Below, one piece after another: positions 28,232 through 51,431 of a stretch of DNA of 51,845 bases. This DNA is from Thioalkalispiraceae bacterium (GTDB lineage: Bacteria; Pseudomonadota; Gammaproteobacteria; UBA6429; Thiohalophilaceae), in assembly GCA_050116415.1 (NCBI GenBank), contig JASFOS010000001.1:1-51845 (forward strand). The letters run 5' to 3'. Both the position numbers and the translations under genes were made by a program. The notes beneath the pieces were generated by a model, which was not told the origin of the DNA, did not search any database, and saw only the letters and a list, made by a program, of their open reading frames with translations. Positions within the stretch are counted from its first letter, which is position 1; every line of letters begins with the position of its first letter.

Positions 28232-28267
28232 ACACGGACTTTTTTTGATATATATTGGTTCGTTGAT

Positions 28268-29995: not shown

Positions 29996-30009
29996 ACTAA
30001 GCTGATCCA

Positions 30010-30969: not shown

Positions 30970-30972
30970 GCT

Positions 30973-31641: not shown

Positions 31642-31650
31642 AATCCTAAA

Positions 31651-32301: not shown

Positions 32302-32465
32302 AAAATATTTGAAGCAATTTCATTGATGAATTTACAGTAAAAATAAGGCTGTGCTGTCTATATCCTAATGAAGTATCCTGTTAACTGGAATAATTAAAAA
32401 TGACATTCACCATATGGTTTATTGGAATCAAGCTATGAATCAATCCAATTCATACAGGATTCGTT

Positions 32466-33356
32466 TTATGATGGAAAGAAATCAATTGGATATGTCACAA
32501 CTTCAGTATCTACGTCCTTGGCAGCGAAACGCATCAGCTTAACGCGTGCAATAATCTTGCTTTCCAGGCTTTTATTGCCAAGTTCACTGGATAAAATTTT
32601 ACAAGCGGTAACCTGACCAGAGGGGCTTATAGTCAACTCAATGGTTACACGACCCTGGATCGTGGGATCTCTCCTTAAACTCCGGTTATACATCGAGTAG
32701 AAAGAGCCTTTGTATTTCTGGAATACTGCTTCAATTTCTTCCCGGGTACGTCGCGCTTTTCCAGTCTGTCTGTTGTATCTTGTCTTGGCGACGGTTATGT
32801 TACTGGAGACTGAAGATGTTGCATGGCTATCAAGTTTCTGTTCAACAGTAGCAGAAGTCAGACGACTTTTATCCACGCCGCCGCTAAGTTTTTTAGCTGA
32901 ACTTGAAATCAGTTTCGATGCATTATATTTCTTAACCTGCTTGTTGACGGTCTGTGTTTTATCTATTTTCCCCAGGTCAAACGATTCACGTAAATCTGCA
33001 AGATCATCACTGAGCGCTAATAGACCTGATTGCTCAATCTTCTTTTTGACAGGTTTTTTGGCTTCTTTTTTGGCAGTTTTCTTTTCGGTTTTTTTTCTGA
33101 TTTCTTTCTTTGGCTCTTTTTTGATTATTTTCGGTTTCTTCTTCTCCTGTTTTTTCTTGACGATAAGCTTTGCAAGTCTTGGCGAAACCTGGTTAAGTTG
33201 CTTTTTTTCGGCTTCAGGAACCGGAAGAAAAGGTATAATTATGCCAAGTATGCAGAATGCAATAATTGAGCGGCGTAATATTTTCTTGAAATTCTTATCA
33301 TCATTCGTCTCGTACCAGGGAAATGATGCGTCGTAGTAAAAACTGCTATTCTGCAT
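32466..33356 (-). CDS. TonB-like energy-transducer with Lys-rich spacer and TonB/AgmX-type C-terminal domain
   Basis: One N-terminal TM (IIAFCILGIIIPFL). Residues ~66-106 are almost pure K/E/P/T. The C-terminus (GRVTIELTISPSGQVTACKILSS...) has a TonB_C-like beta-alpha-beta pattern. Last gene of the ExbB/ExbD operon. Confidence 0.7.
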   Translation of the reverse strand: MQNSSFYYDASFPWYETNDDKNFKKILRRSIIAFCILGIIIPFLPVPEAEKKQLNQVSPRLAKLIVKKKQEKKKPKIIKKEPKKEIRKKTEKKTAKKEAKKPVKKKIEQSGLLALSDDLADLRESFDLGKIDKTQTVNKQVKKYNASKLISSSAKKLSGGVDKSRLTSATVEQKLDSHATSSVSSNITVAKTRYNRQTGKARRTREEIEAVFQKYKGSFYSMYNRSLRRDPTIQGRVTIELTISPSGQVTACKILSSELGNKSLESKIIARVKLMRFAAKDVDTEVVTYPIDFFPS

Positions 33357-33360
33357 ACGT

Positions 33361-33837
33361 TCAACCTTCTGATTTCTTCAGTACAGCGAATGATATATTC
33401 TGAACGTTCGTAGCGGCTACGCTTAGCATAATACTCTTAAGAACAGAGTAGGGAATGGATTTATCACCCATGATCGTCACACTACGTTTTTGTTTTTCAA
33501 GCTTATCAATGCCACGAGATTTGAGCTGCGTGTTTATAAATTTACCAATGCGTTTCTCATCAAGTTTGTTAACATCAATCGCAATGCTCTTGCCAAGTAA
33601 CTCTACCTTGTTATTATTTACAACGATAACAATGTTCTGTTTTGGCGTTTTTGTGGCGATTGACTCAGGCAATGCTATATTTTTTGGTTGAGATACGACC
33701 TGGCTCTCACTTGAAGTAACAAGCAGGAAAAATACCAAAATTGTGAAAATATCCATTAAGGAAACCATGTTGAGTGAAAATGATTTCTCTTTTGAGCGGC
33801 GATGATGCCTGGCCATTCTGTTAGCTTTTACCGACAT
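33361..33837 (-). CDS. ExbD/TolR-family protein (paralog b, TM Asp retained)
   Basis: 158 aa. LNMVSLMDIFTILVFFLL aligns to ExbD INVTPFIDVMLVLLIIF, with Asp29 (GAT, 33751-33753). Confidence 0.85.
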   Translation of the reverse strand: MSVKANRMARHHRRSKEKSFSLNMVSLMDIFTILVFFLLVTSSESQVVSQPKNIALPESIATKTPKQNIVIVVNNNKVELLGKSIAIDVNKLDEKRIGKFINTQLKSRGIDKLEKQKRSVTIMGDKSIPYSVLKSIMLSVAATNVQNISFAVLKKSEG

Positions 33838-33846
33838 AATTGCATC

Positions 33847-34341
33847 CTAGGGTGCGTCACCTAATGAAATTGAAGGGAACAACTCAACCTCAACATATTC
33901 ACCGTCTATATTCGTTTTATATGAACGCGATGCGTCCATCGTCGAGATTATTTCATCATATTTGATGTTCTTGTCAGATAAAATGTTGACTGCGGTAACA
34001 TAAGGTATCTTTTCTTTTATCTGAACAAGGTATTTTTTAAGCAGGTTATTAGTATCCTTATGTTTTTTATCTATTTTACCAATAACATTACCGGTACTAT
34101 CGCTTAATACAATGGTATTATTTTTGAGTATGACGTTGATGTGAGTGATCTTTTTTTCATTTTTCTTAGTCGTTGATTTTGAAGCGGAATCAGGCAAATT
34201 CAACTCAATAATTGTCAAATGTGAAAATACAGCAGTCATGAGCAAGAATGGCACGAGAACGACCATCAGGTTCATAAATGCAGTGATATTCAGCTCTGCC
34301 TGCTGTATGCCTGTACGTTTTATTTTATGCTTTCTTCGCAT
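33847..34341 (-). CDS. ExbD/TolR-family protein (paralog a, TM Asp replaced by Asn)
   Basis: 164 aa. LNITAFMNLMVVLVPFLL has Asn24 (AAC, 34270-34272) at the position of the conserved proton-relay Asp. Confidence 0.85.
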   Translation of the reverse strand: MRRKHKIKRTGIQQAELNITAFMNLMVVLVPFLLMTAVFSHLTIIELNLPDSASKSTTKKNEKKITHINVILKNNTIVLSDSTGNVIGKIDKKHKDTNNLLKKYLVQIKEKIPYVTAVNILSDKNIKYDEIISTMDASRSYKTNIDGEYVEVELFPSISLGDAP

Positions 34342-34346
34342 TGCTG

Positions 34347-34979
34347 CTATGCCTTGGTGTTGTGCATCAGGATATTCGCAAATTTAACAGTTGCCATTTC
34401 CAGGCTATCAATGACTTCCGTGGTTTTTGTTTGTAACACGGCATAAATAAGCAGAAGGGGGATTGCTACCATTAACCCGAAGGCAGTGGTGTTCATCGCG
34501 ACCGATATACTGGTTGATAATATTTCTGCTTTTAGAGCAGGATCTACTTGAGCAACAGCGGTGAAGGCCTTGATAAGACCAATAATAGTACCAAGCAGCC
34601 CGAGTAATGTTGCAATATTTGCAAATGTGGCAAGATAGTGAGTTCTTCTTTCAAGACGAGGAATAACTTCAAGCATACTTTCTTCCATTGCGCTTTCAAT
34701 ATCTTCGCGTGATTTTGAGGTCTTGTAGCGCATCAAACCCTGGTAAAGCATTTTGTTAACCGCATGGTTTGATTTTGAAACCACGGAGTAGGCTTTTTGC
34801 ATATCACCCGACTGTAACAACTGTAATATCGTGTTTAATGATTTTCTGTTGTTTTTTCTGACCAGGGTAAGATAAAAATACCTTTCAATTGAAATTGCGA
34901 CACCTAGTGCCAGCACCAGCATTATGGGGTACATAAATGCACCACCATCATTAAAAAAGTTCACAATACTCGCATACAT
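34347..34979 (-). CDS. MotA/TolQ/ExbB proton-channel family protein
   Basis: 210 aa with 3 TM segments. LATFANIATLLGLLGTIIGLIKAF and AMNTTAFGLMVAIP are typical ExbB/TolQ motifs. Confidence 0.9.
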   Translation of the reverse strand: MYASIVNFFNDGGAFMYPIMLVLALGVAISIERYFYLTLVRKNNRKSLNTILQLLQSGDMQKAYSVVSKSNHAVNKMLYQGLMRYKTSKSREDIESAMEESMLEVIPRLERRTHYLATFANIATLLGLLGTIIGLIKAFTAVAQVDPALKAEILSTSISVAMNTTAFGLMVAIPLLLIYAVLQTKTTEVIDSLEMATVKFANILMHNTKA

Positions 34980-34994
34980 TTTAATACTCCGATA

Positions 34995-35261
34995 TTATTG
35001 GTATCTCTGGTGATTTTCGATTCTTTTTAAAAAAACATTCCGGTCAACAGGCAGCAGCTGGCTTTCTATGAGCGACTCATGAAGTTCCGGGTTTAAATTA
35101 GGCTGTGGTGTTTTTTTCCAGGGAACGATATAGAGCACATTAGGCATCTCGCTATTGCCGATTACAGCCGTACCATCCATGATAAGTTTTTCTTTTTCTT
35201 GTGCAGATAAAGGCTGCACGAGAATTGACAATGAAAACATCATTAGCAGTAATAATCTCAT
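34995..35261 (-). CDS. small secreted protein (88 aa)
   Basis: Start at ATG 35261 (GGAGAG RBS; ATGA overlap with the upstream stop). Signal peptide MRLLLLMMFSLSILVQPLSA|QE. Confidence 0.6.
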   Translation of the reverse strand: MRLLLLMMFSLSILVQPLSAQEKEKLIMDGTAVIGNSEMPNVLYIVPWKKTPQPNLNPELHESLIESQLLPVDRNVFLKRIENHQRYQ

Positions 35262-35854
35262 TTTGCTCTCCTTGTTACTTCGACAATCCATTTGTCGATA
35301 TTTTGGTCATTTCCAGCCAACTGCTTGTATTTTTCATAGTAGGGCAGAGCTTTATTCGCATTGTTAAGGTAGATATCATACAGGATGGCTATGTTCAAAT
35401 AGGCATCCGGATACTTGCCGTTATTTGCTATCGATGTGTTGTAGGCGGCAATGGCCTCATCAAATTTGCCAATTTTTCGCAATATCACACCATGAATATT
35501 TTGTGACTGGTAATTTCCAGGTCGTATTGAAATACTTTTCTCTATATATTCCTTTGCTGTATCAAGTTTTGCCTTATGCAAATAAATGATAGCCATATTG
35601 GTATAGAGGTCTGGATGCGTATACTCAGGTTCCAGGGCTAAAAACACCTCGGAAGCTTTGTCATAATCCTCACGCTTCATTAATTCGATTGCATAGTTAT
35701 AGCGCGGCGGCCTTTTATCATCGTTAATTATTGTACTGGAGCCACTGTTATCAACAGGTGAAGATGTACAGCCATATGATAATATGGCAAAAACGAGAAG
35801 GAATAACCAGCCTGTTTTTGTGAACTTATTCAACATAATGAACAAATCTCTCAT
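35258..35854 (-). CDS. TPR-repeat lipoprotein-like protein
   Basis: 198 aa. The signal peptide ends in ...AILSYG|C (lipobox-like). Several 34-aa TPR units follow (YDKASEVF..., LDTAKEYIEKSISIRPGN, FDEAIAAYNTSIANNGKYPDAY). Confidence 0.75.
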   Translation of the reverse strand: MRDLFIMLNKFTKTGWLFLLVFAILSYGCTSSPVDNSGSSTIINDDKRPPRYNYAIELMKREDYDKASEVFLALEPEYTHPDLYTNMAIIYLHKAKLDTAKEYIEKSISIRPGNYQSQNIHGVILRKIGKFDEAIAAYNTSIANNGKYPDAYLNIAILYDIYLNNANKALPYYEKYKQLAGNDQNIDKWIVEVTRRAK

Positions 35855-38594
35855 GTTTGTTGTAGCGGGCGGGTTGTAATTTACTTAGCGTATCAAGACT
35901 TCTTGATATCCATTTATTGATCCCGCCTTGCCTAGCGAGGCTAATATTCTTTTCATGTATATCTATCGATTTTTCTTCAAATGGATAGGCCTGGTCCTCA
36001 AGAATAATCGTGTACTGCATATACTCATCATCACTTAAACCAGGCGGGCGTTCTGAGGTCAGGATATCTTTTGATAATGCATAGTAAATATTGGCAATAT
36101 TATAGGTGGCCTCGGTGGTTAATTTGAATTCTCCCGCATCAATTGCTTGCTCATATTTCTTAAGTACATTTTGCATTAATGATTTCTTGCGCTTCAACGA
36201 TTTCTTTAACGGCTTTGTTAACTTGACTGCCTTGAATTTCTGGTAATCAAAATACGCGTATCTCAGGTTTGCACGCGCTACTGTATAATTAACATCTTTG
36301 GGTAGTGTCTTGTATGTTTTTTTCAGGGCGATGATCTTGTCTAACCAGTATTTTTCATTTTTTTGATTTTTTGTGTCCTGATAATAGCTTGCAATTTCGA
36401 AAACAGTATCAGCGTAATCGTTTAGTGGGATCTTGTAGACTTTCGCATATTCCTTCTGGATATTGACTGCTTTATCCCGGTTACCACCTTTTTTGTATAG
36501 ATCGGCAATATTGAGCAATATCTCACGCTTCGTTTCACGATCTTTTTCCTGGTTATAGATATATACAAACTCATCCGCGGCTTTTGTGTACTGTTTTTTA
36601 TTCAGGTAAATAAATGCGAGTTTTTCGTGTAAATTTTTCTTGTCAAACCCTTTAGAGCGGTTGTTCTTCAGGCTGATCAGTATGCTTTCTGCCTGATTAT
36701 TATCATTTTGCTTCATCAACAAGCTTGCAGCATCAAAGCTGGCAGTACCCGCGATTTCAGTACCTCCGTATGCTTTACCGACTCTGGTGAGCTTTTGTAT
36801 GGCTACAGCAGGGTTTGTATTAAATAGGCGCTTGGCATCAAGATAAGCAGCGGCAGCGGCTTTTTTCCATAGATCATTTTTCAGCCTGGGTTCAGAAATG
36901 GCATGGGCTTTTCTGTACCCATTTTCTGCTTCGGGATAATTTTCCAGTTCGAATGCAGAATGCGCAAAAATTAAAATCGCGGATGCATAAACCTTTTTGT
37001 CCTGGTTGTTTTTATTTACTAAAATTGATGAGGACGAATAAGCGGCCTGATATTCATGATCATCATATTGGTATTGCGAAGCTTTAAGTAAGACTTTATC
37101 GGCTTGTGGGTGCGAACCGAACTCATAGTAAAATTTCAAATGAGCGTTCTTTAGCCGGTTGCGCCAACGATGATCCCTGTTTCCTGGTTTTTCATATAGC
37201 GATATAGCCGCGTATGCTGCTTTAGAGTTTTTTGGGTTGTATAAGTAAGCTGTTTTTTCATACTCGTCTATAGCTTTTTTGTATTGTTGATTGTCATTAA
37301 GTAATTCTGCCAGTCTGAAATTGAGGCCCTGTGCCCGTGGTTGGGTTGCATAATGTGTCAGGTAGTACCTGTACCAATGTTCAGCTCGTTTACTGTTGGT
37401 TTTCTTCTGTTTGCCTTTACTATATGCGTGATAATATGTTGCCAAATCAATGACATTGTTTTCAATGGACTTGTTAAGACTATCCCATTCTTCTTTATCA
37501 ATATTTTTCTGATAGTGTGTACCTGGCCCAAAATTGTTGATAAACCTGACTTTTTCCGGGACAATTTGTTCACTTAAACCAGCCACCTGGTAGAGTGAGA
37601 TAATATTCTGATGGAATTTATAAGCATGTCGTGACTGCTTGTGCTTGTTTATAAATTCACGATAGGTGTCGATGGCGTCAACATAGCGTTTCTTGTTTTT
37701 GTAAAGTGTAGCAAGACTTGAATATAGTAACGGGGTATAGGGCCTGTTTCTGGTATATTTCACAATGTGTTGTGAGCCGCCCATGTAACTGAAAGAAAGA
37801 CTAATCGCACGCAAGACATCAGTAATCGCTTCCTTTTCTCCTTTGCTGACAGAGCTGGTAATTTGATAATCCGTTACCTGGTTGTTTTTGTAATAAAAAT
37901 CGACAAGTTTCATGAAGTGCTCAACAGAGATGCCATATCTTTCCTGCTTGAAATTTACCCACGCATATTTATACAGTGTTTTATTGAATAAATTCGTTTT
38001 TTTGTACTTTTCAGATAGTATCGTTTTATAGGCGTTTCCTGAGTCATGAAAGTTTCTTGTCGTGAACAAATATTCGCCACGTCTGAACTGTGTTTCCTGG
38101 AAATAGCTGCTTCCGCTATAATTATTAACCAGGTAGGTCAAGTACTGGAATGAGGTAGCGGGTTTCTCGATCAGTTCGTAGCCTCTGGATATTTGATAGA
38201 TGATGTAATCGTTATCAGGATCAGAAGGAAATTTAGAAACATAAAGCTTGTACGTGTTGATTGCATCGTCGATCATCATTTTGCCAGTACGATAATCTTC
38301 TCTATTAGTAGATACAATGAGACGTTCACCTTTGTCGATAAGCAGGTCACCATAGCGCCTTAAAACCTGTTTTTTATTTTTGGTATTAAGCTTCTCGTCA
38401 AGAAGATCGCGATATTTCGCTATAACAATATCTTCGTTCAAAGGCGTGCTGAATGTAGCTATGCTGAGCTCCTGGCCCAGGTTTGACTCAATATTATCGA
38501 TTTCACCAATTTTATCGTACTTGTATGAAGAACACCCATGCAGTAAAAGCAAGCCGGTAAAAAAAGTAAAAGTTAATTTATTCTGAAAAATCAT
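35826..38594 (-). CDS. very large TPR/BamD-YbgF-like repeat lipoprotein-like protein (922 aa)
   Basis: Signal peptide with LLLHG|C. Repeated Y..A...Y..F...YP helical-repeat pattern throughout. The start overlaps the upstream stop as ATGA (38591-38594). Confidence 0.7.
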   Translation of the reverse strand: MIFQNKLTFTFFTGLLLLHGCSSYKYDKIGEIDNIESNLGQELSIATFSTPLNEDIVIAKYRDLLDEKLNTKNKKQVLRRYGDLLIDKGERLIVSTNREDYRTGKMMIDDAINTYKLYVSKFPSDPDNDYIIYQISRGYELIEKPATSFQYLTYLVNNYSGSSYFQETQFRRGEYLFTTRNFHDSGNAYKTILSEKYKKTNLFNKTLYKYAWVNFKQERYGISVEHFMKLVDFYYKNNQVTDYQITSSVSKGEKEAITDVLRAISLSFSYMGGSQHIVKYTRNRPYTPLLYSSLATLYKNKKRYVDAIDTYREFINKHKQSRHAYKFHQNIISLYQVAGLSEQIVPEKVRFINNFGPGTHYQKNIDKEEWDSLNKSIENNVIDLATYYHAYSKGKQKKTNSKRAEHWYRYYLTHYATQPRAQGLNFRLAELLNDNQQYKKAIDEYEKTAYLYNPKNSKAAYAAISLYEKPGNRDHRWRNRLKNAHLKFYYEFGSHPQADKVLLKASQYQYDDHEYQAAYSSSSILVNKNNQDKKVYASAILIFAHSAFELENYPEAENGYRKAHAISEPRLKNDLWKKAAAAAYLDAKRLFNTNPAVAIQKLTRVGKAYGGTEIAGTASFDAASLLMKQNDNNQAESILISLKNNRSKGFDKKNLHEKLAFIYLNKKQYTKAADEFVYIYNQEKDRETKREILLNIADLYKKGGNRDKAVNIQKEYAKVYKIPLNDYADTVFEIASYYQDTKNQKNEKYWLDKIIALKKTYKTLPKDVNYTVARANLRYAYFDYQKFKAVKLTKPLKKSLKRKKSLMQNVLKKYEQAIDAGEFKLTTEATYNIANIYYALSKDILTSERPPGLSDDEYMQYTIILEDQAYPFEEKSIDIHEKNISLARQGGINKWISRSLDTLSKLQPARYNKHERFVHYVE

Positions 38595-40423
38595 TTTTTA
38601 TTCAACACGATCCGATCAGATACGCGCGCCACATCGAACTTGAAGGCGCGGTAATACGAGTCAATATTTTTGAATCGCTTATCCAGTTCAGCGGCAGCTG
38701 TTTTAATTAACTGTTCTTTAAGATTAACTGTAGTAGTTTCTAGTCGAGCATCCAGCTTCTTAAGCCTCGAGTAGAGCGAATCGATTGTGTTTTTATGCAT
38801 TGAATAGTTAAATTCCGAATTAGCAGAAACCTTGAGCGAAGCAATTTGTTCATCGAGTGCTTTTAGATGTTTGCGCGACTGTTTGAGGTTACTTTCTGTT
38901 TCCCAAATCCTGGTGTGATATTGCTGTGCGGCATTCCAGTAATTGATTCCCTTCATGAGATCAACTTTGTATTCATAGTCACCAAGATCTTCGTGTTTTT
39001 TAAGTTTTGTAATTGTGTCGGAAACATAGTTCAGGTCTTCTGAATACTCGGTCTCAGACTGCGTGTAAAGGCCTTCCACATCATGCGTAGCATTTATTTT
39101 ATTGAATTTTATCTCAAGTTTACCCAGTTTTTCGGCATAATCATTTCGTATATCACTATATTTAGTAGTGGAAATGGCTTTCTTCTTCTGCTTGAAGTGT
39201 TTGTCACGCTCTTTTAGCATGATATAAAATTCGGGTATCTGATTTTTCCAGTGGTTGACTGTCTCGCGCAGATTAAGCAGATCGATATAATGATTATAGA
39301 GTCCTGAGAAGTCCCTGTTGAAAGAAAGTTCAGCGAGTAAATATTTGTACTGTGGGCTAACAATGGTTATCTCGCCATTCTCATCTTTCCTGAAGTTATC
39401 AAAAAATAACTGGCTTCTTATTTTTTTGATCAGTTCATCCAGTTCTTTTTTTGTGTGCTGTATACTGACTACGCCATCATTCAGGACTTTTAGTGAATCT
39501 TCCAAATTACCATTCTGCTCAAGAATACGTGCGATCAATAAAATAGAATAAAATTGATAGATATCTTTCGATTCTCTTGTTTTAAGTTTGTTCAGCAATG
39601 AAAAAGCACGTTTGCTGTTGCCTGACATGGAATGGGCGAGGGCAGACAGGTATATCGCACTTTCCGCGAATAAACCATCAGCATTCATGTCATCGATATA
39701 TTTTATCGTGGATTTGTAGTCCTCGTTTTTGAAATGTAAATTAGCGAGGTGAAGCCTGGCTTTGTCTGCAATGCTGGCTTGCTCAATGTTTTCCGGTTTA
39801 TCTTCAGTCAACTTGATCAGGTATTTTTTTCCTTTTTCCGGGTTATTTTGTTTTAAATGAGCAATAGCAAGATTGAACAGGATATATTGATAGTTTGCAG
39901 AATCAGGGTTCGAGTTTTCTAACATGCGCTCAAGTTTAACTAAATTGTTATTGTGCACGTATACGTTAGATAGAATATTGGTTTTTTCCAATTTTCTGGT
40001 GCGGGGGAATTGTTCGCTGATTCTTTCGAGAGCAGCAGCAGAGTTGTTATAGTCGAAGTTGCGATAAAAGTCCCGACCGATATAAAACCAGATGATATTC
40101 CTTAATTCTTCATCCAGGCTGTCTGTGTTAATATTTTCAAATATCGTTTTTGCATCATAGTTGAGCCCATATGCCAGATAAATGCCACCCAGAAGTAACT
40201 TGTTTCTGGGTTCGAGCGTACTATTGTTATATTTTTCGTTATTGATCATTGCCTTGCTGAGCGCAGTGATGTAATCGCCACTATAATAATGAAACAGGGT
40301 GTTTTTATAGAATAATTCATTGGTATCATCGTGCTTATTTTCTTCAGCAGGAAGTGATGAAAGCAGCATCATCTGAAGCATAGAGAATGCCAATAGAAAC
40401 AACACCTGTTTACGAGAAAGCAT
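38591..40423 (-). CDS. secreted TPR-like plus coiled-coil protein (610 aa)
   Basis: Signal peptide (LLAFSMLQMMLLSSLPA). The N-terminal two-thirds carries TPR-like repeats. The C-terminal ~250 aa is rich in heptad-like K/E/L segments. Confidence 0.65.
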   Translation of the reverse strand: MLSRKQVLFLLAFSMLQMMLLSSLPAEENKHDDTNELFYKNTLFHYYSGDYITALSKAMINNEKYNNSTLEPRNKLLLGGIYLAYGLNYDAKTIFENINTDSLDEELRNIIWFYIGRDFYRNFDYNNSAAALERISEQFPRTRKLEKTNILSNVYVHNNNLVKLERMLENSNPDSANYQYILFNLAIAHLKQNNPEKGKKYLIKLTEDKPENIEQASIADKARLHLANLHFKNEDYKSTIKYIDDMNADGLFAESAIYLSALAHSMSGNSKRAFSLLNKLKTRESKDIYQFYSILLIARILEQNGNLEDSLKVLNDGVVSIQHTKKELDELIKKIRSQLFFDNFRKDENGEITIVSPQYKYLLAELSFNRDFSGLYNHYIDLLNLRETVNHWKNQIPEFYIMLKERDKHFKQKKKAISTTKYSDIRNDYAEKLGKLEIKFNKINATHDVEGLYTQSETEYSEDLNYVSDTITKLKKHEDLGDYEYKVDLMKGINYWNAAQQYHTRIWETESNLKQSRKHLKALDEQIASLKVSANSEFNYSMHKNTIDSLYSRLKKLDARLETTTVNLKEQLIKTAAAELDKRFKNIDSYYRAFKFDVARVSDRIVLNKK

Positions 40424-40437
40424 AAAACCAGAAACCC

Positions 40438-40974
40438 TTATTCCCAGAATTTTGAATCAAAATACGGTTGTTGTTTACCTTCATTATCAGTGATTTTGAA
40501 CTCAACAAAGGTGGGGTCGGGCGATTTTGTGATTTTTATGCTGCTGCCACGGCGATAATCACGATTGTTTGGTCCCTGGCCGACGAAAAAAGCGACAATT
40601 TCGTGCTCACCAGAAGCAAGGTTACCAAGGTAAATACGTTGCACACCTCCCCGTTTTAGTGCCTCAGACTCACTCTGCGTATATAGATGGTTGGCGACAG
40701 TTTTGTCATCGATCTTGATTTGCACGGAATCAAGTGAAAAATATTCACCAATATCCATGGAAAGGAAAACGGAAAACTGAGTGTTTGCAGGAAACAGCAG
40801 GTCTTCTTCCAGTATGAAGAGCTCCTTGTTTAACTGGATAATTTCTTTCTTAATATCCTGTACGTCTTTTGTAAGTTTGCCGGGTTCTTGTTCAGAAGCC
40901 ATGCTGAATGCTGAAACAAACAAAAGTACTGGAATAAGAATGATTTTAAATAATGACCTGGTTAAAGTATTCAT
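40438..40974 (-). CDS. secreted protein of unknown function (178 aa)
   Basis: Signal peptide (ILIPVLLFVSAFSMA|SE), a short coiled-coil, then a beta-rich region. Tightly coupled to apbE (2-nt gap). Confidence 0.6.
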   Translation of the reverse strand: MNTLTRSLFKIILIPVLLFVSAFSMASEQEPGKLTKDVQDIKKEIIQLNKELFILEEDLLFPANTQFSVFLSMDIGEYFSLDSVQIKIDDKTVANHLYTQSESEALKRGGVQRIYLGNLASGEHEIVAFFVGQGPNNRDYRRGSSIKITKSPDPTFVEFKITDNEGKQQPYFDSKFWE

Positions 40975-40976
40975 AA

Positions 40977-42011
40977 TTATTTTGCGCTGTTAATGAGTCC
41001 ATTGGAAAATGATGCATGTCCGTCTGGGTAGACATAAATTGCATCATAGCCTTCGATTTTGTTAATAAGTTTTAGCCCATCTCGCTCGCCAAGAACGAAC
41101 AGGGTAGTGGAGAGGGCGTCGGTGTCAGTTGGTGACGAGCCCAATACAGTTACACTTACGCTCTTTTTTGCTGAACGACCGGTATCGGGGTTAAGTATAT
41201 GGTGATAGCGTTTTTCATCCTCGATGAAGAATCTTTCGTAATCACCAGATGTGGAAATGGCAAGATTTGAAACAGGGATGGCGATATTGTTTTTATCATG
41301 CCGGGGGTCTTTAATGGCAATAAACCAGGGCTTTCTATTTTTGGTGCCAATGGCGTAGCTGTCGCCACCTGCACTCAGATAGGCGTTGCTTATGCCATGA
41401 CCTTGTATAATTTCAATTCCTTTTTGCACGGCGAATCCTTTTGCAATACCACCCAGGTCGAGTTTGACATACTTGTTGGAAAATCTGACCGTTTTATTCT
41501 TGTTATCTAGGATTATTGCTTTGTAATTAATCTTATCGAGATTGTTTTGTATTTGTTGTTCAGAGGGTTTCTGTTTCAACCTGAAGTCATAATATTGTCC
41601 AATTGTACCGACAGTTATGTCAAATGCGCCATTCGACAATTCCGAGAAATAGATGGATTTCTCGAGCAGTGAAAAAAGCCGTTCTGGAACCTTGATCGGC
41701 CTGATCCCAGCTTCCTGGTTAACGATGGATAATAAGCTATCAGGCTTGTAATTACTCATCTCATTATTGATATCCCACATCAACTTAAAAACATCTTCTA
41801 TGGCCTGGTTAGCAACAAACGGATCAGGATGTTGCAGGTCAATGGATATCCTGGTACCCATGATTGCTTGCTCGGCGTGATACCAGTTGTTTGTGGATGT
41901 TTTCGCTGAGGCTAAAACAGGCAGAGCTGTGCAAATTAAAATCGCGCTCAGAAGCGTGCTAATTAAGGCAGAAAAGGAACGAGGGCATGCATATAACTGC
42001 TTGAAATACAT
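40977..42011 (-). CDS. apbE: FAD:protein FMN transferase (ApbE family), periplasmic
   Basis: 344 aa with a signal peptide. ApbE motifs LDLGGIAKGFAV, AISTSGDYERFF and YHHILNPDTG. Confidence 0.88.
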   Translation of the reverse strand: MYFKQLYACPRSFSALISTLLSAILICTALPVLASAKTSTNNWYHAEQAIMGTRISIDLQHPDPFVANQAIEDVFKLMWDINNEMSNYKPDSLLSIVNQEAGIRPIKVPERLFSLLEKSIYFSELSNGAFDITVGTIGQYYDFRLKQKPSEQQIQNNLDKINYKAIILDNKNKTVRFSNKYVKLDLGGIAKGFAVQKGIEIIQGHGISNAYLSAGGDSYAIGTKNRKPWFIAIKDPRHDKNNIAIPVSNLAISTSGDYERFFIEDEKRYHHILNPDTGRSAKKSVSVTVLGSSPTDTDALSTTLFVLGERDGLKLINKIEGYDAIYVYPDGHASFSNGLINSAK

Positions 42012-42063
42012 GTTGTTTTTACATCTTTATAATTTAACATAATATACATTATGCGCATATTTA

Positions 42064-43665
42064 TTATAGCGGCGCAAATGAGACCAGTTGATCGTAATTA
42101 CTGCCCAGGCCGTGATCGGGAAACTTATCTGCATTGGCAAACTGGCTAAGATCCCCATTCAAGGCCATGTAATTGAGCAGCATGGTATTGACCAGCAGGT
42201 TGACGTTGTTGGCGCATGGCGATGAACTGGTAACCACGTTGGCATCCGAGGTGTAATAACCGATTTGCTGGCGCAATTCCACGGGAATGCTGCCATCATC
42301 AATCAGTTGCGGGCGACCGCCTGGATTATAGACCAGGAAAAACGACGCCGCGGTACCCGAGTTATCACTGGTCCACTCGCCCTTGTTGCCGTTATAAATC
42401 CCGTTGGTATCCGTTGAGGTATCGACACGACCGTTACTGGAGACTGAGCCGTCACTGAATACGTACAGCATCAACGGGGTGTTTTTACGGCGGGCATATT
42501 CCAGGCAGGCGCCCATACAACGACCGGCCCGGTAATCACGTAATTCACCGGTAATACGATCACCGGTATGGTAATCAAAGCCACCCATGGTTATGGTACC
42601 GGCACCGGCATAACCGCTACAAACCAGTTTCATCACCGAGGCGGTCTTCCTGAATTCGGAATCGCTGTTATATTCCGTGGTGCTGAAAATGCCCGTGGCC
42701 CCGACGATATCCGGGTCGATGTCAGGATTCAAGGTGGTGGGGTCACCAAACTCGTTAACCAGGTCGGCACTTTTCACGTAACCGCAACGCACCATTTCCT
42801 TGATCACCGCGTCATTGGTCAGCTGGGTATTGACGTTACCGAGTTTTTTGTCACTCAGGCGCTGAATCGCTTCCATGACATGTACGGCCTGGTCGGTGGA
42901 AAACAGGTTGACCAGTTTGCCGGTATCCACCAGCCCCTGTACATCCGAGGGCCGGTCAACTTTTGTCGGTCTGACTGAAGCATCATACAGCGACATCGGC
43001 GCCATCGAATTGCCACCGGAGTCCGAGTTACGTGAGCCAATCAGGGTCAACAACCGGCCATCCTGCCCTGCTTTGTAGATCCCGTACATGGGGTTATGCG
43101 GGTTATTACCCGTGTCATTATCAGATCGTGCCGGGATCACCGTGCCATTGATAAAGTCCGCGGTACCGGCACTCAGGCTGGCTTTAATACCTTTGAGGAA
43201 ACCACTGTCAGAATGAAACGCCAGACCCAGTTCAGTGTTGATGAAATCATTGGTCGGGTTCATCGGGTCAGTCAGGTTCTGGATCGGCGGAATCATATCG
43301 CCAGGGATGCCGAGCTTGTCGTAACCGGCGGTACTGAGAAAATCCATTTGCCCACCTGCCCCGCCAACCAGTACATTGGAACCGGCAATGTTGGCGCCAC
43401 CTGCCAGGTCAAAACAGATAAACGGTATCTTGGTTGATGATGGTCGTCCACCACAATTGGTATTTAAAATATTTTCGATATCACCGGACAAGGCCGCTCT
43501 TGCCTCGCCGGGGTTGGTAAACAGACCAAACAGGCTGGGACCGGTCACCGCAGCCATACCTGAAAGAAAACCCTGTTGAATAAACTGGCGACGCGTGACG
43601 GGACGCGCGTGATCAGCATGCTTCAACGGTTCATTGGGATTAAGGTATTTTTTCTTCCTTGTCAT
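42064..43665 (-). CDS. Tat-signal protein, DUF1501-like (sulfatase/alkaline-phosphatase-superfamily-like)
   Basis: Start at ATG 43665 (14 nt after the upstream stop). Twin-arginine signal TRRQFIQQGFLSGMAAV...ARA. GGFDYHTGD resembles the DUF1501 GGWDTH motif. The family call is from memory. Confidence 0.55.
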   Translation of the reverse strand: MTRKKKYLNPNEPLKHADHARPVTRRQFIQQGFLSGMAAVTGPSLFGLFTNPGEARAALSGDIENILNTNCGGRPSSTKIPFICFDLAGGANIAGSNVLVGGAGGQMDFLSTAGYDKLGIPGDMIPPIQNLTDPMNPTNDFINTELGLAFHSDSGFLKGIKASLSAGTADFINGTVIPARSDNDTGNNPHNPMYGIYKAGQDGRLLTLIGSRNSDSGGNSMAPMSLYDASVRPTKVDRPSDVQGLVDTGKLVNLFSTDQAVHVMEAIQRLSDKKLGNVNTQLTNDAVIKEMVRCGYVKSADLVNEFGDPTTLNPDIDPDIVGATGIFSTTEYNSDSEFRKTASVMKLVCSGYAGAGTITMGGFDYHTGDRITGELRDYRAGRCMGACLEYARRKNTPLMLYVFSDGSVSSNGRVDTSTDTNGIYNGNKGEWTSDNSGTAASFFLVYNPGGRPQLIDDGSIPVELRQQIGYYTSDANVVTSSSPCANNVNLLVNTMLLNYMALNGDLSQFANADKFPDHGLGSNYDQLVSFAPL

Positions 43666-43679
43666 TTCAGCTAACCTGC

Positions 43680-46301
43680 TTATTGAATTAAGGTATTGGC
43701 ACCGGCAATCGCTGCGGTACACACGGCCTTGGTAACCAGTTGCGTCTGTTGGGCTGTATTGCACGTAGTAGCAACACATGCGTTCAAGTTGTCCATCAGG
43801 TGAATCAATTCACTTTTTGTTGTGAAGGTATCCCCTGTTGCATCAGGAACCGTACCACCTTCGGCAAACGCGCCATCATCCATCTGGTAGTCCATGCCGG
43901 TACCATTCACCGCGCTCAGTACTGGGTCAATGATGACAGAAGGATCGGCAAAGGCCACGGTGGGTGTCTGGCTAAAGTCAAAACTGCCGAACAGTGTTGA
44001 AGTGTCACCCAGGGTGGCATCGACCACAAGCGCCTGGCAATATTCCATCGCCAGCTGTGTCACACCAATGTTATGCGCGGTAACGAAAGTCTTGATATCC
44101 GGTGACGAAGGTAACTGTTGTTTTACCAGGTCATAGGTGGCGGGTATATCATAGTCATAATCATCATTGGCATGATCCAGTGCGGCTTGTTTGCTTACAC
44201 CCAGCATGCTGGAGAAAGTTTCATTGATTTCATCAAAAGTCTTGATGCCAATATCAGACGCCGGATCGGTATCGGCGGGTGTCCTGGCGGTATAGACTGG
44301 CTCCGTATAGGTTCTGGTCTCGGTACCTAACAGTTCAAAGGTCAGGAAGAATTCATCATCAGCCGAGCCTTTTTCCAGCGGGATCGTGGTGCCGATATCG
44401 GATAATAACTGCTCGTTAGCTGTTATCGTGGTATCGATATTGACATAGCCCTGGCCAACCGATGATTCCCTGGCATTGATGCCAATGCGCATTCCCTTGA
44501 TGGGAATACTGACAGAAGAAAGACCCGGATCCAGTGAAATATACCTGGGTTCGGTAAACAGGTAGCTGTAATCATCGAACTGGCTGACCAGGAACATGAT
44601 ATAGCTCTGTGCCGGTACGCCATCGATATGACTGATGTCGAATAACAGGAAGAATTTTTCACCGACACCGGCCACGAAGTTCTGGTTAATTTGCTCAGGG
44701 GTCAAGGCGCGGTTATGAATCGAGGCCATTTTAATCGTGCCTTTCCATAAATTATCATCATTACTGGCAGCCGGTTCGTTGCCCAGTACCAGTGAGAAAG
44801 TATTACTCCAGCTGTTCAAACTGCCACCCGCCTGCGCATCAGGGGCGGTTTGCAATACGCCATTGACATAAATTTTACGGCCTTCCGTGGTGGTATAGGT
44901 GGCGACTACATGTTGCAAGGTGGCTTGCAGCACTTCGGCGGCGTCCGGTGTTGACACCGCTGCTTCACCATTCAGGTCGGTCAGACTATTCCTGTTCTGG
45001 AAGTCATAATTATAAAGGGTCTGGCTCAGGCTGAAGTTACGATTACCCGGGCCGCCAGAGTAGTTGATGATCCGTGCCATTTCCTGTGTCACGTTATTGG
45101 GTGCCACCCAGGCTTCGAGTGAATATTCACCGGTAGCCTGTATCAGGTCATAGAGCTTGCCACTGCTGCTTGCACCGCCCTGGGCATAGCCACTACCGTT
45201 AATCTTGATGCCCCAGCCGCCTACCCAGCTGACATCCCCAACCAGTGACAGGTTGATGGGCTCACTGCCGCTGGTGTCATAGGCAATATTCCCCTGCCCG
45301 GTTTTGAATTCATAAAGCGCGATCTGGTTAGCTTCATAACGGGCACCACCACTGGCAACAATACCGTCTGGAATCTGCATGGCATTGCTGACCACGTTCG
45401 CCGAGGTGTCAATGGCATTGGTGGTAATACCCTGGGCAAACAAGGTAATGGCATTTTCCATGACGTTGGCGCTATCGGCACAATCATCGCCGGTATCGAA
45501 AGCCGGATCGGTGACATCCCAGCACTGATGGTTTTCGTTCCTGAGTTTTAACACCAGCCGGGAGTTACCGGGGTCATCCAGGTTGATCTTGGTCTGGGCC
45601 GCCTGGTAGGAAGAACTCAGGTTGGAGGGATCGGCAAACAGTGGATCACCCGGTCCGCTGGTATGACAAGTAGCACAAAATGGCACCAGGATCGGGTTAA
45701 AGATCAGTTCTTCGAAGCTGGTGCCGGGTCCCCCGGTGGTCGTCATGGCATCTGTCGGAAACTCCTTACCGCCACCCGGTGTACCTGAATTGGTGGGAGC
45801 GACAAGCTGGATTTCTTTGGAAAACTCTGCGGATTCACCTAACCAGGCTTCGATATAACCTTGTACTAGGTCAGCACAAACCTGGTCGCTGGCCCAGCAA
45901 TTATGACCATCCCCCTCAACCGACGGGTTACCTAATACTTGCTGAACAATTATTGATTGGGATGGGTTTTCAGCATCAATGAGACCATTGACCTCGGCGT
46001 AAGCCTGGTTGATATTCTGGTTCATGAAAAAAGGTGCCGTATCTTGCTGGTGACAGGTGGCACAATTACTTTGCAAGGTCGATTTATTCCAGAATTCAGT
46101 ACAGAAAGAATTAACATCGGCCGTGGCAGGTGCGGGATCAAGGCTACCACAACCCTGCACTACACCGGTGGTAACGTTTAAATTCGGGTTGGATGTCGTG
46201 CTTTCTCCCCCGCCACAGGCAACCAGCATGACCGCTGCAATTACCAGCAATAATGAATGTTTCAGTTTACCCAGCATCGTATTATTTATTGCGAATAACA
46301 T
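43680..46301 (-). CDS. lipoprotein with two CxxCH (planctomycete-cytochrome-like) modules and a LamG/concanavalin-like domain (873 aa)
   Basis: Lipobox MLVA|CGGG. CATCH occurs twice, each followed by H.CW and D.P..S motifs. The central region with EYSLEAWV...NFSLSQ... is LamG-like. Confidence 0.65.
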   Translation of the reverse strand: MLFAINNTMLGKLKHSLLLVIAAVMLVACGGGESTTSNPNLNVTTGVVQGCGSLDPAPATADVNSFCTEFWNKSTLQSNCATCHQQDTAPFFMNQNINQAYAEVNGLIDAENPSQSIIVQQVLGNPSVEGDGHNCWASDQVCADLVQGYIEAWLGESAEFSKEIQLVAPTNSGTPGGGKEFPTDAMTTTGGPGTSFEELIFNPILVPFCATCHTSGPGDPLFADPSNLSSSYQAAQTKINLDDPGNSRLVLKLRNENHQCWDVTDPAFDTGDDCADSANVMENAITLFAQGITTNAIDTSANVVSNAMQIPDGIVASGGARYEANQIALYEFKTGQGNIAYDTSGSEPINLSLVGDVSWVGGWGIKINGSGYAQGGASSSGKLYDLIQATGEYSLEAWVAPNNVTQEMARIINYSGGPGNRNFSLSQTLYNYDFQNRNSLTDLNGEAAVSTPDAAEVLQATLQHVVATYTTTEGRKIYVNGVLQTAPDAQAGGSLNSWSNTFSLVLGNEPAASNDDNLWKGTIKMASIHNRALTPEQINQNFVAGVGEKFFLLFDISHIDGVPAQSYIMFLVSQFDDYSYLFTEPRYISLDPGLSSVSIPIKGMRIGINARESSVGQGYVNIDTTITANEQLLSDIGTTIPLEKGSADDEFFLTFELLGTETRTYTEPVYTARTPADTDPASDIGIKTFDEINETFSSMLGVSKQAALDHANDDYDYDIPATYDLVKQQLPSSPDIKTFVTAHNIGVTQLAMEYCQALVVDATLGDTSTLFGSFDFSQTPTVAFADPSVIIDPVLSAVNGTGMDYQMDDGAFAEGGTVPDATGDTFTTKSELIHLMDNLNACVATTCNTAQQTQLVTKAVCTAAIAGANTLIQ

Positions 46302-46319: not shown

Positions 46320-47579
46320 TCATGGCGTCGGAATCAAACAATATGCTGCTGCTTGAGCAAACGATTGTTTCAGGTTGTAACCACCGGTTTTAAACGCGGT
46401 CGTCATGTTCGAGACTTGTGTCCGGTCAGCACTGTTGGCGGGAGCACGTAGGCAGACGGTTTTGAATACTTTTTTCACCTGGCAACTGGCAAATTCATCT
46501 GAGCTAGCCAGTTCTGCCCCCAGCGATTTTGCACCGTTGCCGGATGCGGTAGCGCCATTCCAGCCGAGTACCGAGTTTGGCCCCTTGCGCCAGTAATTGG
46601 TCCAGCTGTCATCCGGTGTGGCAAAGCCCCACTTGAAGTTGTTGGCGTTAATCAGGTATTTGGGTTGAACACTGCCGGCGGTATAAACCAGTTGGCCGCT
46701 CTGGGCTTCAGGATCGCTGGTAGCGTCATATTGATAATCATAATAGGCGAAGGCCTGGGCCATGGGATCCATGCCGGCATGACAGCCCACGCAGTTATTC
46801 AGGTATATGCGGCTATCACCTCCGGGACTCCGTGAGACATCCTGGCGAATACGATCGGTGGCACCGGTCACATCCTTGTAATATTCAAGATCGTTACAAA
46901 AGTGGTTGAGGATGGTGAAGCGGAACATGGCGCGGTTGGTGCCATCCACGAAAAATGCCTTGGCGGCCGCGCGGGTGGTCATTACCCCTGCAGTTGCGGT
47001 TGAGGGTAGCCCCAGGGTATTGGGATTGGATTGCGTGGTTTGATACAGGTTGGCTTTTAAATCGATGCCATTTTGTTCGGCATCGGCATAATGATCGTTA
47101 TCTGTTCTTGAATAGGCAGGTAGACCGAATGGCGGTGTCGAATCCGGATTACCCACGGTATACAAAATATCGCCGGACAGAATTTGCCTGAAGTCGTGAT
47201 TATCGCGCACGATACCGATTACCGTCGCGGTGTAATCGTTAAGCGGATCAAAAATGGTTTGCGCTTCGTTGGTCCATGGCGTGACCATGTTTTTCAGGGT
47301 GACGTTATAAAATGCCGGATGATCAATGGCCACGTAGGCGGCAGCCTCGTATCCGGCTGGATGGTTTACCCCGTTATCATCGACATAGCCACTCGAGTAT
47401 GCGCTTTCCATGGCCTGCAGGGTGGCTTCGTCAGGATGCACACCGGTAATGCGGTCATGGATGCGCTTTAACTGGTCACGCGGCTCCTGCACGGCTCCCG
47501 CGGTGGTCAAAAACGTTAATATATACGAAAAAAGTAGTATTTTTATAAGTTGTTGATAACGCATCCATTCATGCCTCAA
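46320..47579 (-). CDS. secreted DUF1588-like CxxCH protein (419 aa)
   Basis: Signal peptide. CVGCHAGMDPMAQAFAYYDY resembles the C..CH...DP.G...E.FD motif of the planctomycete DUF1588/DUF1592 families. ATG 47564 is an alternative start (GAGG 9 nt upstream). Confidence 0.55.
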   Translation of the reverse strand: MRHEWMRYQQLIKILLFSYILTFLTTAGAVQEPRDQLKRIHDRITGVHPDEATLQAMESAYSSGYVDDNGVNHPAGYEAAAYVAIDHPAFYNVTLKNMVTPWTNEAQTIFDPLNDYTATVIGIVRDNHDFRQILSGDILYTVGNPDSTPPFGLPAYSRTDNDHYADAEQNGIDLKANLYQTTQSNPNTLGLPSTATAGVMTTRAAAKAFFVDGTNRAMFRFTILNHFCNDLEYYKDVTGATDRIRQDVSRSPGGDSRIYLNNCVGCHAGMDPMAQAFAYYDYQYDATSDPEAQSGQLVYTAGSVQPKYLINANNFKWGFATPDDSWTNYWRKGPNSVLGWNGATASGNGAKSLGAELASSDEFASCQVKKVFKTVCLRAPANSADRTQVSNMTTAFKTGGYNLKQSFAQAAAYCLIPTP

Positions 47580-50648: not shown

Positions 50649-51431
50649 ATGTTTGGTTTTGCCGTAAAACATACCAAACAGCCAATAATTGCCTCTCTAT
50701 TATATATAGCAATTAGTCTGTTTAGTATTTTTCCACAGATCGTGATGGCCAACGAGGCTGAGTTCCAGAAGCTTATCGTTGCCGATCCCTATATCGATAT
50801 GCATACCGGTCCGGGACGTGGCTATCCGATCTTCTACGTGGCGGAACGTGGCGCAGAAATCATCATCTTGAAGAGCAAAACCAGCTGGTACAAGATTCGC
50901 TTGAATAACAATAAGGAAGGCTGGGTGCATCGCGCTCAACTGGAACGCACCCTGACACCAGGTGGTGAGAAAAAAACCTTCAAGTCAGTACAACAGGAGG
51001 ATTATTTAGGTCGCAAGTGGGAAATTGGCGTGCTCAGTGGTGATGCCGATGGTTATGCCACCATGACACTTTATGGGGCCTATAACTTTAACGATGCCAT
51101 GGCGGCTGAATTTTCTGTTTCCCAGTTTCTCGGGGACCTGGCCAGTGGTTATTTATGGAGTATTGACCTGGTTTCGCAACCTTTTCCGGAATGGTGGGTG
51201 TCACCGTTTTTTGCACTGGGGACGGGCCAGATACAGATTACACCCAACACTACCCTGATCCAGTCGCCGGACATCAAGGATAACCAGGCGCATGTTGCAC
51301 TGGGAATAAAAAAATATATCGCGCAACGTTTTTTATTTAGAGCCGAATACCGAAGTTACGTGGTATTCCAGAGTCGCCCTGAAAATGAGGAAATAGAGGA
51401 ATGGAGAGCAGGATTCGCCTTCTTTTTTTAA
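50649..51431 (+). CDS. SH3-domain plus outer-membrane beta-barrel fusion protein
   Basis: Signal peptide (...FPQIVMA|NE). Bacterial SH3-like segment (YIDMHTGPGRGYPIFYVAERGAEIIILKSKTSWYKIRLNNNKEGWVH). Amphipathic beta strands end in ...GFAFFF, a terminal-Phe OMP signature. Confidence 0.65.
   Translation: MFGFAVKHTKQPIIASLLYIAISLFSIFPQIVMANEAEFQKLIVADPYIDMHTGPGRGYPIFYVAERGAEIIILKSKTSWYKIRLNNNKEGWVHRAQLERTLTPGGEKKTFKSVQQEDYLGRKWEIGVLSGDADGYATMTLYGAYNFNDAMAAEFSVSQFLGDLASGYLWSIDLVSQPFPEWWVSPFFALGTGQIQITPNTTLIQSPDIKDNQAHVALGIKKYIAQRFLFRAEYRSYVVFQSRPENEEIEEWRAGFAFFF

Follow-up and report, generated by a model that had tools for sequence, protein, structure and literature searches.

A probable, divergent member of the Agl/Glt core-complex family beside redox genes on a Thioalkalispiraceae contig

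The role of the ancestral Agl/Glt core in bacteria that do not glide has been an open question since 2011. We present here a gene cluster that probably belongs to this core family, located on the minus strand at positions 32466 to 42011 of a 51,845-nucleotide stretch of contig JASFOS010000001.1 (assembly GCA_050116415.1; the whole stretch is hereafter called the window) from a Thioalkalispiraceae bacterium. An original prediction, made from the sequence by itself, had described ten genes at this place as an operon of ApbE, tetratricopeptide repeat (TPR), ExbB, ExbD and TonB-like proteins and had likened them to the ancestral core of the Myxococcus trans-envelope machines. The ten genes are listed below with their lengths in amino acids (aa).

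32466..33356, minus strand: GltG-like TonB-domain anchor, 296 aa (Pfam TonB_C, NCBIfam NF033768)
33361..33837, minus strand: ExbD/TolR paralog 2, AglS position, 158 aa (Pfam ExbD, 61 bits)
33847..34341, minus strand: ExbD/TolR paralog 1, AglQ position, 164 aa (Pfam ExbD, 52 bits)
34347..34979, minus strand: AglR-like MotA/TolQ/ExbB proton channel, 210 aa (Pfam MotA_ExbB, 108 bits)
34995..35261, minus strand: 88-aa secreted protein (a 98-aa reading frame, 34995-35291, read from the ATG at 35261)
35258..35854, minus strand: GltE-like TPR lipoprotein, 198 aa (Pfam TPR_8, TPR_1 and others; lipobox LSYGC)
35826..38594, minus strand: GltD-like large TPR lipoprotein, 922 aa (Pfam TPR; lipobox LLLHGC)
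38591..40423, minus strand: GltC-like periplasmic TPR and coiled-coil protein, 610 aa (Pfam TPR; type I signal peptide)
40438..40974, minus strand: 178-aa secreted protein, first of the nine-gene unit defined below (signal peptide; no family)
40977..42011, minus strand: extracytosolic ApbE (FAD:protein FMN transferase), 344 aa (Pfam ApbE, 265 bits)

The ten open reading frames (ORFs) are co-directional and have the lengths first reported for them. From ApbE to the TonB-like gene, the gaps are +2, +14, -4, -29, -4, +15, +5, +9 and +4 nt, and the ATGA stop/start overlaps at 38591-38594 and 35258-35261 are both present; the coordinates and the gap range of -29 to +15 nt given originally agree with the ORF list. 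Pfam returned the domains that had been proposed, namely, ApbE (behind an N-terminal signal sequence), MotA_ExbB, ExbD twice, TonB_C, and TPR repeats in the 610-, 922- and 198-aa proteins. The labels of signal-peptide and lipoprotein-like proteins also hold, as signal peptides and the two lipoboxes can be read in the translations. ApbE is part of the cluster as predicted but does not head the operon: the full co-directional, tightly spaced run comprises 13 genes (32466-47579), with three more genes upstream at 42064-47579, which makes ApbE gene 4 of 13. No minus-strand terminator-like site was found inside 32466-47579 by a scan for promoters and terminators; its counts were no higher than in shuffled sequence, and it was used solely for this absence. 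The three upstream genes and ApbE precede the unit also in four loci of the survey described below, two of them closer relatives (L001 and L003) and two with GltD-like proteins 31-33% identical to that of the window (L004 and L006). In the window's lineage, the nine-gene unit forms the distal portion of such a run of 13 genes.

The nine genes from 40974 down to 32466 (178 aa, 610 aa, 922 aa, 198 aa, 88 aa, ExbB, ExbD, ExbD and TonB-like; the nine-gene unit) are, with a probability of roughly 80%, a member of the Agl/Glt core complex, a Tol/Ton-type envelope-spanning machine driven by the proton-motive force (PMF). Luciano et al. (2011, PMC3169522; cited in part throughout) found this core clustered in gammaproteobacteria, one betaproteobacterium (Methylibium), Geobacter and Fibrobacter, with function unknown. 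They treat it, together with one additional gene, as a single functional unit, infer its repeated horizontal transfer, and do not expect motility from the core alone. The comparative genomics to which the original prediction had appealed is thus a real paper that, in the parts cited, says what was ascribed to it. According to a further paper (PMC3858216), the core stands alone as a machinery in many gammaproteobacteria and may be a "basal transport machinery." In Table S3 of PMC3169522, which covers Marinobacter, Saccharophagus, Shewanella, Cellvibrio and Hahella, the order and sizes are GltG-homologue, 321-334 aa; AglS, 162-185 aa; AglQ, 169-188 aa; AglR, 217-242 aa; a skipped locus tag; GltE-homologue, 162-263 aa; GltD-homologue, 939-1016 aa; and GltC-homologue, 624-692 aa. 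In the same order, the window proteins have near-identical sizes of 296, 158, 164, 210, 88, 198, 922 and 610 aa. One MotA/TolQ/ExbB gene is followed by two ExbD/TolR paralogs and an adjoining AgmX/PglI-type anchor, and the TPR genes run GltC-like, GltD-like, GltE-like, with an extra small gene before the motor. Because the order and sizes are those of Table S3 and the anchor passes the AgmX/PglI cut-off of NCBIfam (NF033768, 74 bits vs 40), the predicted resemblance to the Agl-Glt ancestral core is supported.

The closest known counterpart is therefore the published gammaproteobacterial core itself (e.g., Maqu_1595-1601, CJA_3312-3315 and Sfri_1223-1230), which has the same gene order and near-identical sizes. 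It likewise combines one TolQ-like protein, two TolR-like proteins, an AgmX/PglI TonB_C-type anchor and three TPR proteins, and an extra small gene separates its GltE-like gene from its AglR-like one. The window differs in its divergence, as the GltD-like protein is at most 34% identical, among the matches listed, to any relative outside four metagenomic ones. Two features of the window are not listed in the cited parts of the core description: the 178-aa first gene, and the linkage to ApbE, DUF3570, thioredoxin and haem-motif proteins. As the cluster probably belongs to the published family itself, its novelty is lower than had been assumed; within a core family that is known but uncharacterised, it would be a new and divergent member, and the window brings no system of a new kind.

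The Agl-Glt gliding machine and the Agl-Nfs spore-coat machine of M. xanthus have in common with the window an AglRQS-type motor (one channel with two TolR paralogs), a GltG-type anchor and GltC/D/E-type TPR proteins. The TPR proteins are shorter than in M. xanthus (922 vs 1191 aa and 198 vs 471 aa), and Pfam and NCBIfam domain scans of the window identified no counterparts of GltH, GltI, GltJ, GltK/CglC or AglZ. These scans likewise picked out neither GltA nor GltB, which with GltH to GltK make up the Group A components of the gliding machinery (outer-membrane platform, giant TPR protein and AgmX). Of the nomenclature used in the original prediction, the Agm synonyms paired with GltE and GltG cannot stand: Table 1 of PMC3169522 equates GltE with AglT and GltG with PglI, while AgmK is GltI and AgmX is GltJ. 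GltF, which had been counted with the core, is not in the core as published there. Glt proteins go unmentioned in a 2025 survey of TonB and TolA force transducers (PMC12204202).

The best NCBIfam matches of the motor proteins are TolQ for the channel (77 bits, under the cut-off of 221) and TolR for both ExbDs (far under the equivalog cut-off, 39 vs 127). PDB ExbB and TolQ structures match the channel at E values of ~1e-9. An Asp at the corresponding transmembrane position is essential in TolR and ExbD. It is invariant in the second ExbD (73/73 aligned position-2 proteins), whereas the same column of the first ExbD holds Asn in 49/73 and Asp in 24/73, the window protein having Asn. Judged from these alignments, the retained Asp of the second paralog and the frequent Asn of the first suggest a heteromeric ExbD plug with a single protonatable site.

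Behind a short cytoplasmic N-terminus and a single transmembrane helix, the anchor has a linker rich in Lys (35 Lys and 4 Pro in 145 residues) and a C-terminal domain of the AgmX/PglI type. Its C-terminal 90 residues give the NF033768 match and also match the C-terminal end of the GltG equivalog model (58 bits). The scores against TonB models are 26 bits for Pfam TonB_C, just over the cut-off of 24.6, and 38.5 bits for TIGR01352 tonB_Cterm (cut-off, 27). In the family alignment, a cytoplasmic LPW...RFR motif and the C-terminal domain are well conserved, and the membrane helix lacks a conserved His or SHLS motif, the element that binds TonB and TolA to their motors (PMC12204202). No sequence relative of the TonB-like protein was found in the PDB. 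The TonB-like protein is 481-515 aa long in L007, L029, L049 and L054, and a second ExbB gene follows in L029, L049 and L054.

Among the TPR proteins, the GltD-like protein carries CpoB/YbgF-like and BamD-like repeats, and members of its family match tol_pal_ybgF (best E value, 5e-34), CpoB and OM_YfiO. NCBIfam returned no GltC or GltD family, nor one for AglRQS; 17 family members match just YbgF, BamD, CpoB and other TPR models, and a search of the PDB with the GltD-like profile gave generic TPR and CpoB matches alone. The 922-aa protein has four close relatives (64-71% identity), all metagenomic, while the others, among the matches listed, are 27-34% identical (142 in all at E values of ≤1e-5). 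A tblastn search of a plasmid collection with this protein gave zero matches. The GltC-like gene was found in 84/87 surveyed loci, directly upstream of the GltD-like gene, which it overlaps by 4 nt in most of them; GltC of M. xanthus is a 673-aa soluble periplasmic TPR protein (PMC4488436). The GltE-like protein, found in 78/87 loci, has weak NCBIfam matches to PilW, Tgl and GltE, all under cut-off.

Two small secreted proteins complete the unit. The 88-aa protein has a signal peptide in its translation, is present in 85/87 loci, and matches no Pfam or NCBIfam family. It carries the conserved motif L.G..I.GN.E.PK.LYIVPWK, of which LYIVPWK is strand-like. Its gene occupies the position of the "additional gene" of the published core and also matches M. 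xanthus gltF in position and size class, GltF being an 89-aa protein with a signal peptide and no domain (Table 1, PMC3169522); the likeness to GltF is one of position and size. The 178-aa protein, found in 83/87 loci, likewise has no Pfam or NCBIfam family. It has 2855 homologues, and the 120 among the matches listed are 55-82% identical. An AlphaFold2 model (mean pLDDT, 82) shows a long helix and an eight-strand beta-sandwich, for which Foldseek found nothing in the PDB at E values of ≤0.001, just generic beta-sandwiches at TM scores of ~0.3. We regard it as a ninth, strongly conserved component of the unit. Two listed homologue records bear the name "AraC family" (transcriptional regulator) despite the signal peptide and beta-sandwich, and one homologue, 79% identical, is labelled Sedimentisphaerales and lies on a 3.7-kb contig.

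The neighbourhood survey that had been proposed as a check was made on 87 loci, in which ORFs were called and assigned by iterated hidden Markov model (HMM) searches. All nine genes occur in 60 of the 67 loci with enough flanking sequence and are in the same order in 58, most exceptions to the full set being ORF-calling artefacts. At least 577 genomes carry a GltD-like relative, the best being 33% identical (one genome per species was scanned). The gammaproteobacterial carriers include Thioalkalispiraceae, Chromatiaceae, Steroidobacteraceae, Woeseiaceae, Thiodiazotropha, Acidiferrobacterales and Cellvibrionaceae; the others include the betaproteobacterium Aquabacterium, Desulfuromonadales, Desulfobacterales, and bins labelled Nitrospirae and Gemmatimonadota. 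ExbB is the most conserved core protein, with a median identity to its family of 57%, followed by the 178-aa protein (54%), the ExbDs (38-39%), the 88-aa protein (38%), the TonB-like anchor (36%), the GltD-like and GltE-like proteins (31%) and the GltC-like protein (22%).

The genes upstream of ApbE, and those that diverge from them up to the window end, encode the following secreted and outer-membrane proteins.

42064..43668, minus strand: 534-aa twin-arginine-signal (Tat) protein (TRRQFIQ; no Pfam or NCBIfam family; the mechanical ORF extends to 43779)
43680..46301, minus strand: 873-aa lipoprotein with two CxxCH motifs and LamG (Pfam Laminin_G_3, 72 bits)
46320..47579, minus strand: 419-aa secreted protein with one CxxCH motif, first of the 13-gene run (weak PSD2/DUF1585)
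47910..50555, plus strand, divergent: 881-aa lipoprotein with an HZS_alpha middle domain and two CxxCH motifs (Pfam HZS_alpha, 59 bits)
50649..51431, plus strand: 260-aa protein, SH3_3 domain and small outer-membrane beta-barrel (Pfam SH3_3)
51449..51845, plus strand: initial part of a small OMP_myx_plus-family outer-membrane beta-barrel gene, truncated at the end of the window (tblastn)

The haem-binding motif CxxCH is conserved in the family of the 419-aa protein, whose Pfam PSD2 match (21 bits) is under cut-off. In the 873-aa protein, CxxCH occurs at residues 80 and 209, and 34 of 35 family members have the motif; in the 881-aa HZS_alpha-like protein, present in 43/87 loci, it occurs at residues 591 and 732. 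The Tat-signal protein is conserved beside the unit in 37/87 loci. The mechanical start of its gene, 43779, overlaps the upstream gene by 100 nt; the likelier start is the Met at 43668, 37 codons downstream, which the twin-arginine signal follows. A planctomycete-style set (PSD2/DUF1585-like, LamG, Tat-signal and HZS_alpha) lies here on a gammaproteobacterial-looking contig and stands beside the unit in ~35-43 of the 87 loci.

The SH3_3 barrel protein is 44.5% identical to a 261-aa protein of L011, and the truncated barrel gene is 43.8% identical over 128 aa to a 208-aa protein of the same locus (tblastn). The two barrels are paralogous (hhalign, 99.4%; E value, 6.5e-22), and full-length relatives of the second match TIGR04565 OMP_myx_plus at 129-162 bits (cut-off, 60). 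In M. xanthus, GltC is bound by two OmpA-like barrels that are paralogs of each other, GltB (275 aa) and GltA (256 aa) (PMC4488436), and the barrel pair beside the window unit is suggestively reminiscent of these two. In two close relatives (L088 and L090), whose SH3 proteins are 85% and 69% identical to that of the window, the divergent operon goes on with the OMP barrel, thioredoxin, DUF4266 and DUF3570. The order diverging from the operon is HZS_alpha, SH3 barrel, OMP barrel, thioredoxin, DUF4266 and DUF3570; the window has the first three, the divergent operon being cut at 51845, and the others would be expected beyond that point. In other lineages, ApbE, HZS, a lipoprotein, the SH3 barrel, a barrel, thioredoxin and DUF3570 are collinear with the unit, which continues from the 178-aa gene onwards.

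ApbE occurs in 35/87 loci, where it lies either upstream of the unit or downstream of the TonB-like gene, or else farther off beside an HZS_alpha-like gene; it is a variable accessory rather than a fixed part of the nine-gene unit. A conserved [S/T]GA[S/T] flavinylation site is missing from every protein family in the operon. The one candidate considered, DVTGAT of the 419-aa protein, was rejected since the "TGAT" is unconserved and relatives have TRPP. With a target in the operon rejected, the likely ApbE target is DUF3570 of the divergent operon, not the motor core. DUF3570 is an experimentally validated ApbE substrate (PMC8238504), and the [ST][GS]A[ST] site is kept in 19 of 20 full-length DUF3570s of the surveyed loci. 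Clusters that unite ApbE and DUF3570 with thioredoxin-like and DUF4266 genes form a system, its function unknown, that has been described before (Meheust et al. 2021, PMC8238504). The window has extracytosolic ApbE in common with these clusters, and thioredoxin, DUF4266 and DUF3570 occur in its close relatives; in the window, no DsbD was seen. Unlike in the described clusters, the module here sits with HZS_alpha-like, LamG and PSD2-like haem-motif proteins and with an Agl/Glt-type core.

At least one gene of the redox set (ApbE, HZS-like, PSD2-like, LamG, the Tat protein, thioredoxin, DUF4266, DUF3570 and the barrels) lies within 10 kb of the unit in 71 of the 87 loci, in at least four different arrangements. 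Their persistence near the unit across several rearrangements speaks for a functional link. Three non-gammaproteobacterial loci (L007, L041 and L054) have, in place of the redox genes, a giant ORF of 1011-1732 aa directly upstream of the 178-aa gene, with an OmpA domain in both of the loci scanned for it, L007 and L054; in loci of this sort, the TonB-like protein tends to be longer. The linkage of the core to redox genes is not described in the cited parts of Luciano et al. (2011) or in Meheust et al. (2021), the main text of which (PMC8238504) has no mention of ExbB or TolQ and names TonB once; it would be a new point.

Most likely, the motor unit works with an outer-membrane and periplasmic redox module, in which its possible outer-membrane partners are the barrel pair and/or DUF3570. 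The AglR-like ExbB/TolQ channel would house two different ExbD/TolR subunits, only the second with the proton-binding Asp. This motor would act on the GltG-like inner-membrane anchor, whose AgmX/PglI-type TonB-like domain would reach across the periplasm, where the GltD-like and GltE-like lipoproteins, the soluble GltC-like protein and the 178- and 88-aa proteins would form a periplasmic and outer-membrane scaffold. More tentatively, the core could both energise and scaffold the redox module, its TonB domain and TPR scaffold engaging the barrels and/or a flavinylated DUF3570 and so coupling PMF to extracytoplasmic electron transfer. The electron-transfer chain would then comprise the haem-motif proteins, ApbE-installed flavins, thioredoxin and DUF4266. 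If this were true, the barrel pair would be an overlooked counterpart of GltB/GltA, and the ancestral core would already have had an outer-membrane platform and a redox-linked function other than motility. The survey adds to the published picture a conserved 178-aa component, the frequent Asp-to-Asn replacement in one stator plug, and the recurrent coupling to a redox module. It turns the "unknown function" of the core into a concrete hypothesis that is testable in culturable carriers of the family, which include Cellvibrio japonicus, Marinobacter, Peristeroidobacter agariperforans (L016) and Aquabacterium sp. A7-Y (L087).

Several observations count against this interpretation of the unit and its surroundings. 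Assignment of the TPR and motor proteins to the core draws on synteny, size and a published table, and should be held as probable on that footing. The 25-bit match of the 198-aa protein to the GltE model is weak and typical of any TPR protein. The 296-aa anchor lacks an FHA domain, TonB_C being its sole Pfam match, and is half the length of M. xanthus GltG, in which FHA occupies residues 26-90 of the N-terminal cytoplasmic part (PMC3169522). The 80 loci kept by the genome scan are those closest to the query family and hence a biased sample of the 577, and none of these 80 best loci comes from the genomes of the published core. No redox-set gene is present in 16 of the 87 loci, which are mostly non-gammaproteobacterial or on short contigs, and co-localisation of the core with redox genes may point to a physical or functional link but falls short of proving one. 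Literature searches by locus tag and keyword returned nothing on the function of the gammaproteobacterial core or on experiments with it.

Could the cluster instead be an ordinary additional ExbB-ExbD-TonB energiser for TonB-dependent receptors, fitted with accessory TPR proteins? The Vibrio TonB2 cluster with TtpD is the comparison for a Ton system of that kind. The Pfam matches to MotA_ExbB, ExbD (twice) and TonB_C and the passing tonB_Cterm score are what such a system would give, but the likeness is limited to these domain families. No receptor was found in the window, where all large ORFs were scanned with Pfam, nor among Pfam-labelled relatives, as the original prediction had said of the window. 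Linkage of orthologous clusters to TonB-dependent receptors had been named as the observation that would point to a Ton system, and none recurs near the 87 loci, the recurrent large neighbours being KefB-like, PEP carboxylase, M48 peptidase, cNMP/rhodanese and OmpA-giant proteins. The anchor helix is without the conserved His/SHLS motif (PMC12204202), the linker is Lys-rich and not Pro-rich, and the C-terminus scores higher on the AgmX/PglI model than on TonB_C; two ExbD paralogs and a fixed set of five extra periplasmic proteins are foreign to Ton. The motor unit does not resemble a Ton system for nutrient uptake, and we hold this explanation to be very improbable. A divergent second Tol-Pal-like system, serving outer-membrane stabilisation or constriction with the TPR proteins as CpoB/YbgF-like factors, is somewhat easier to entertain but still unlikely. 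It shares with the window a proton-driven TolQ/TolR-like stator, a TonB/TolA-like anchor C-terminus and CpoB/YbgF-like repeats in the large lipoprotein; TolQ and TolR are the best NCBIfam matches, the GltD-like family matches tol_pal_ybgF and CpoB, and the Agl motor is itself TolQR-like (PMC3169522). The TolQ and TolR scores are, however, far under the equivalog cut-offs (77 vs 221 and 39 vs 127). The claim that the cluster is not Tol-Pal is borne out by Pfam, which found no PD40/TolB-propeller or OmpA/Pal-type domain in the ten proteins. There are two TolR paralogs and five additional fixed periplasmic components, of which the 178-aa, 88-aa and GltC-like proteins have no Tol-Pal counterpart. 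M. xanthus, moreover, has a separate bona fide Tol-Pal system besides Agl-Glt (PMC3169522).

A last alternative concerns the DNA rather than the machine. The low G+C (guanine plus cytosine) content that had been noted is real: a 17-kb block at approximately 25000-42000 has ~38% G+C within a contig of ~51%, and the boundary near 42,000 falls inside the conserved operon, between the Tat-signal gene and ApbE. This drop, and the repeated horizontal transfer of the core inferred by Luciano et al. (PMC3169522), could suggest that the block was acquired horizontally as an island, or that it is a chimera of the assembly, and that the ten genes are unrelated to their neighbours. Yet the Tat-ApbE adjacency across the boundary is kept in L001, L003, L004 and L006, whose GltD-like proteins are 31-71% identical to that of the window. 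The cluster has a G+C content below that of its flanks also in L001 and L003 (with a smaller drop), and unrelated low-G+C genes at 25034-32301 are syntenic in L003. The synteny across the boundary in relatives excludes a chimera or assembly join at ~42,000, and we give the island-or-chimera explanation as a whole next to no credence. Protein composition or ancient transfer is a possible cause of the low-G+C block; an ancient transfer of the whole family is possible without changing what the cluster is, namely, on the preferred reading, an Agl/Glt core complex.

The surroundings of the cluster are of the housekeeping kind, as predicted, with ClpB, FtsK, LolA, SerS, UvrC, PgsA and others in the window by Pfam. 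Directly downstream of and convergent to the operon, a plus-strand trio at 30010-32301 encodes a radical SAM/DUF3641 protein, a family 2 glycosyltransferase and a DUF2064 (CofC-like) protein. The trio is syntenic in L003, and DUF2064-like and glycosyltransferase-like ORFs also lie near the unit in L057. A partner-switching-type set at 26720-29995 on the plus strand, inside the low-G+C block and likewise syntenic in L003, is made up of an MCP-signalling-domain protein, a STAS protein and a response regulator that has both SpoIIE phosphatase and HATPase_c_2 domains. At the other G+C boundary, a minus-strand gene at 21130-24558 encodes an 1142-aa secreted protein with glucose/sorbosone dehydrogenase, fibronectin type III and PKD-like domains.

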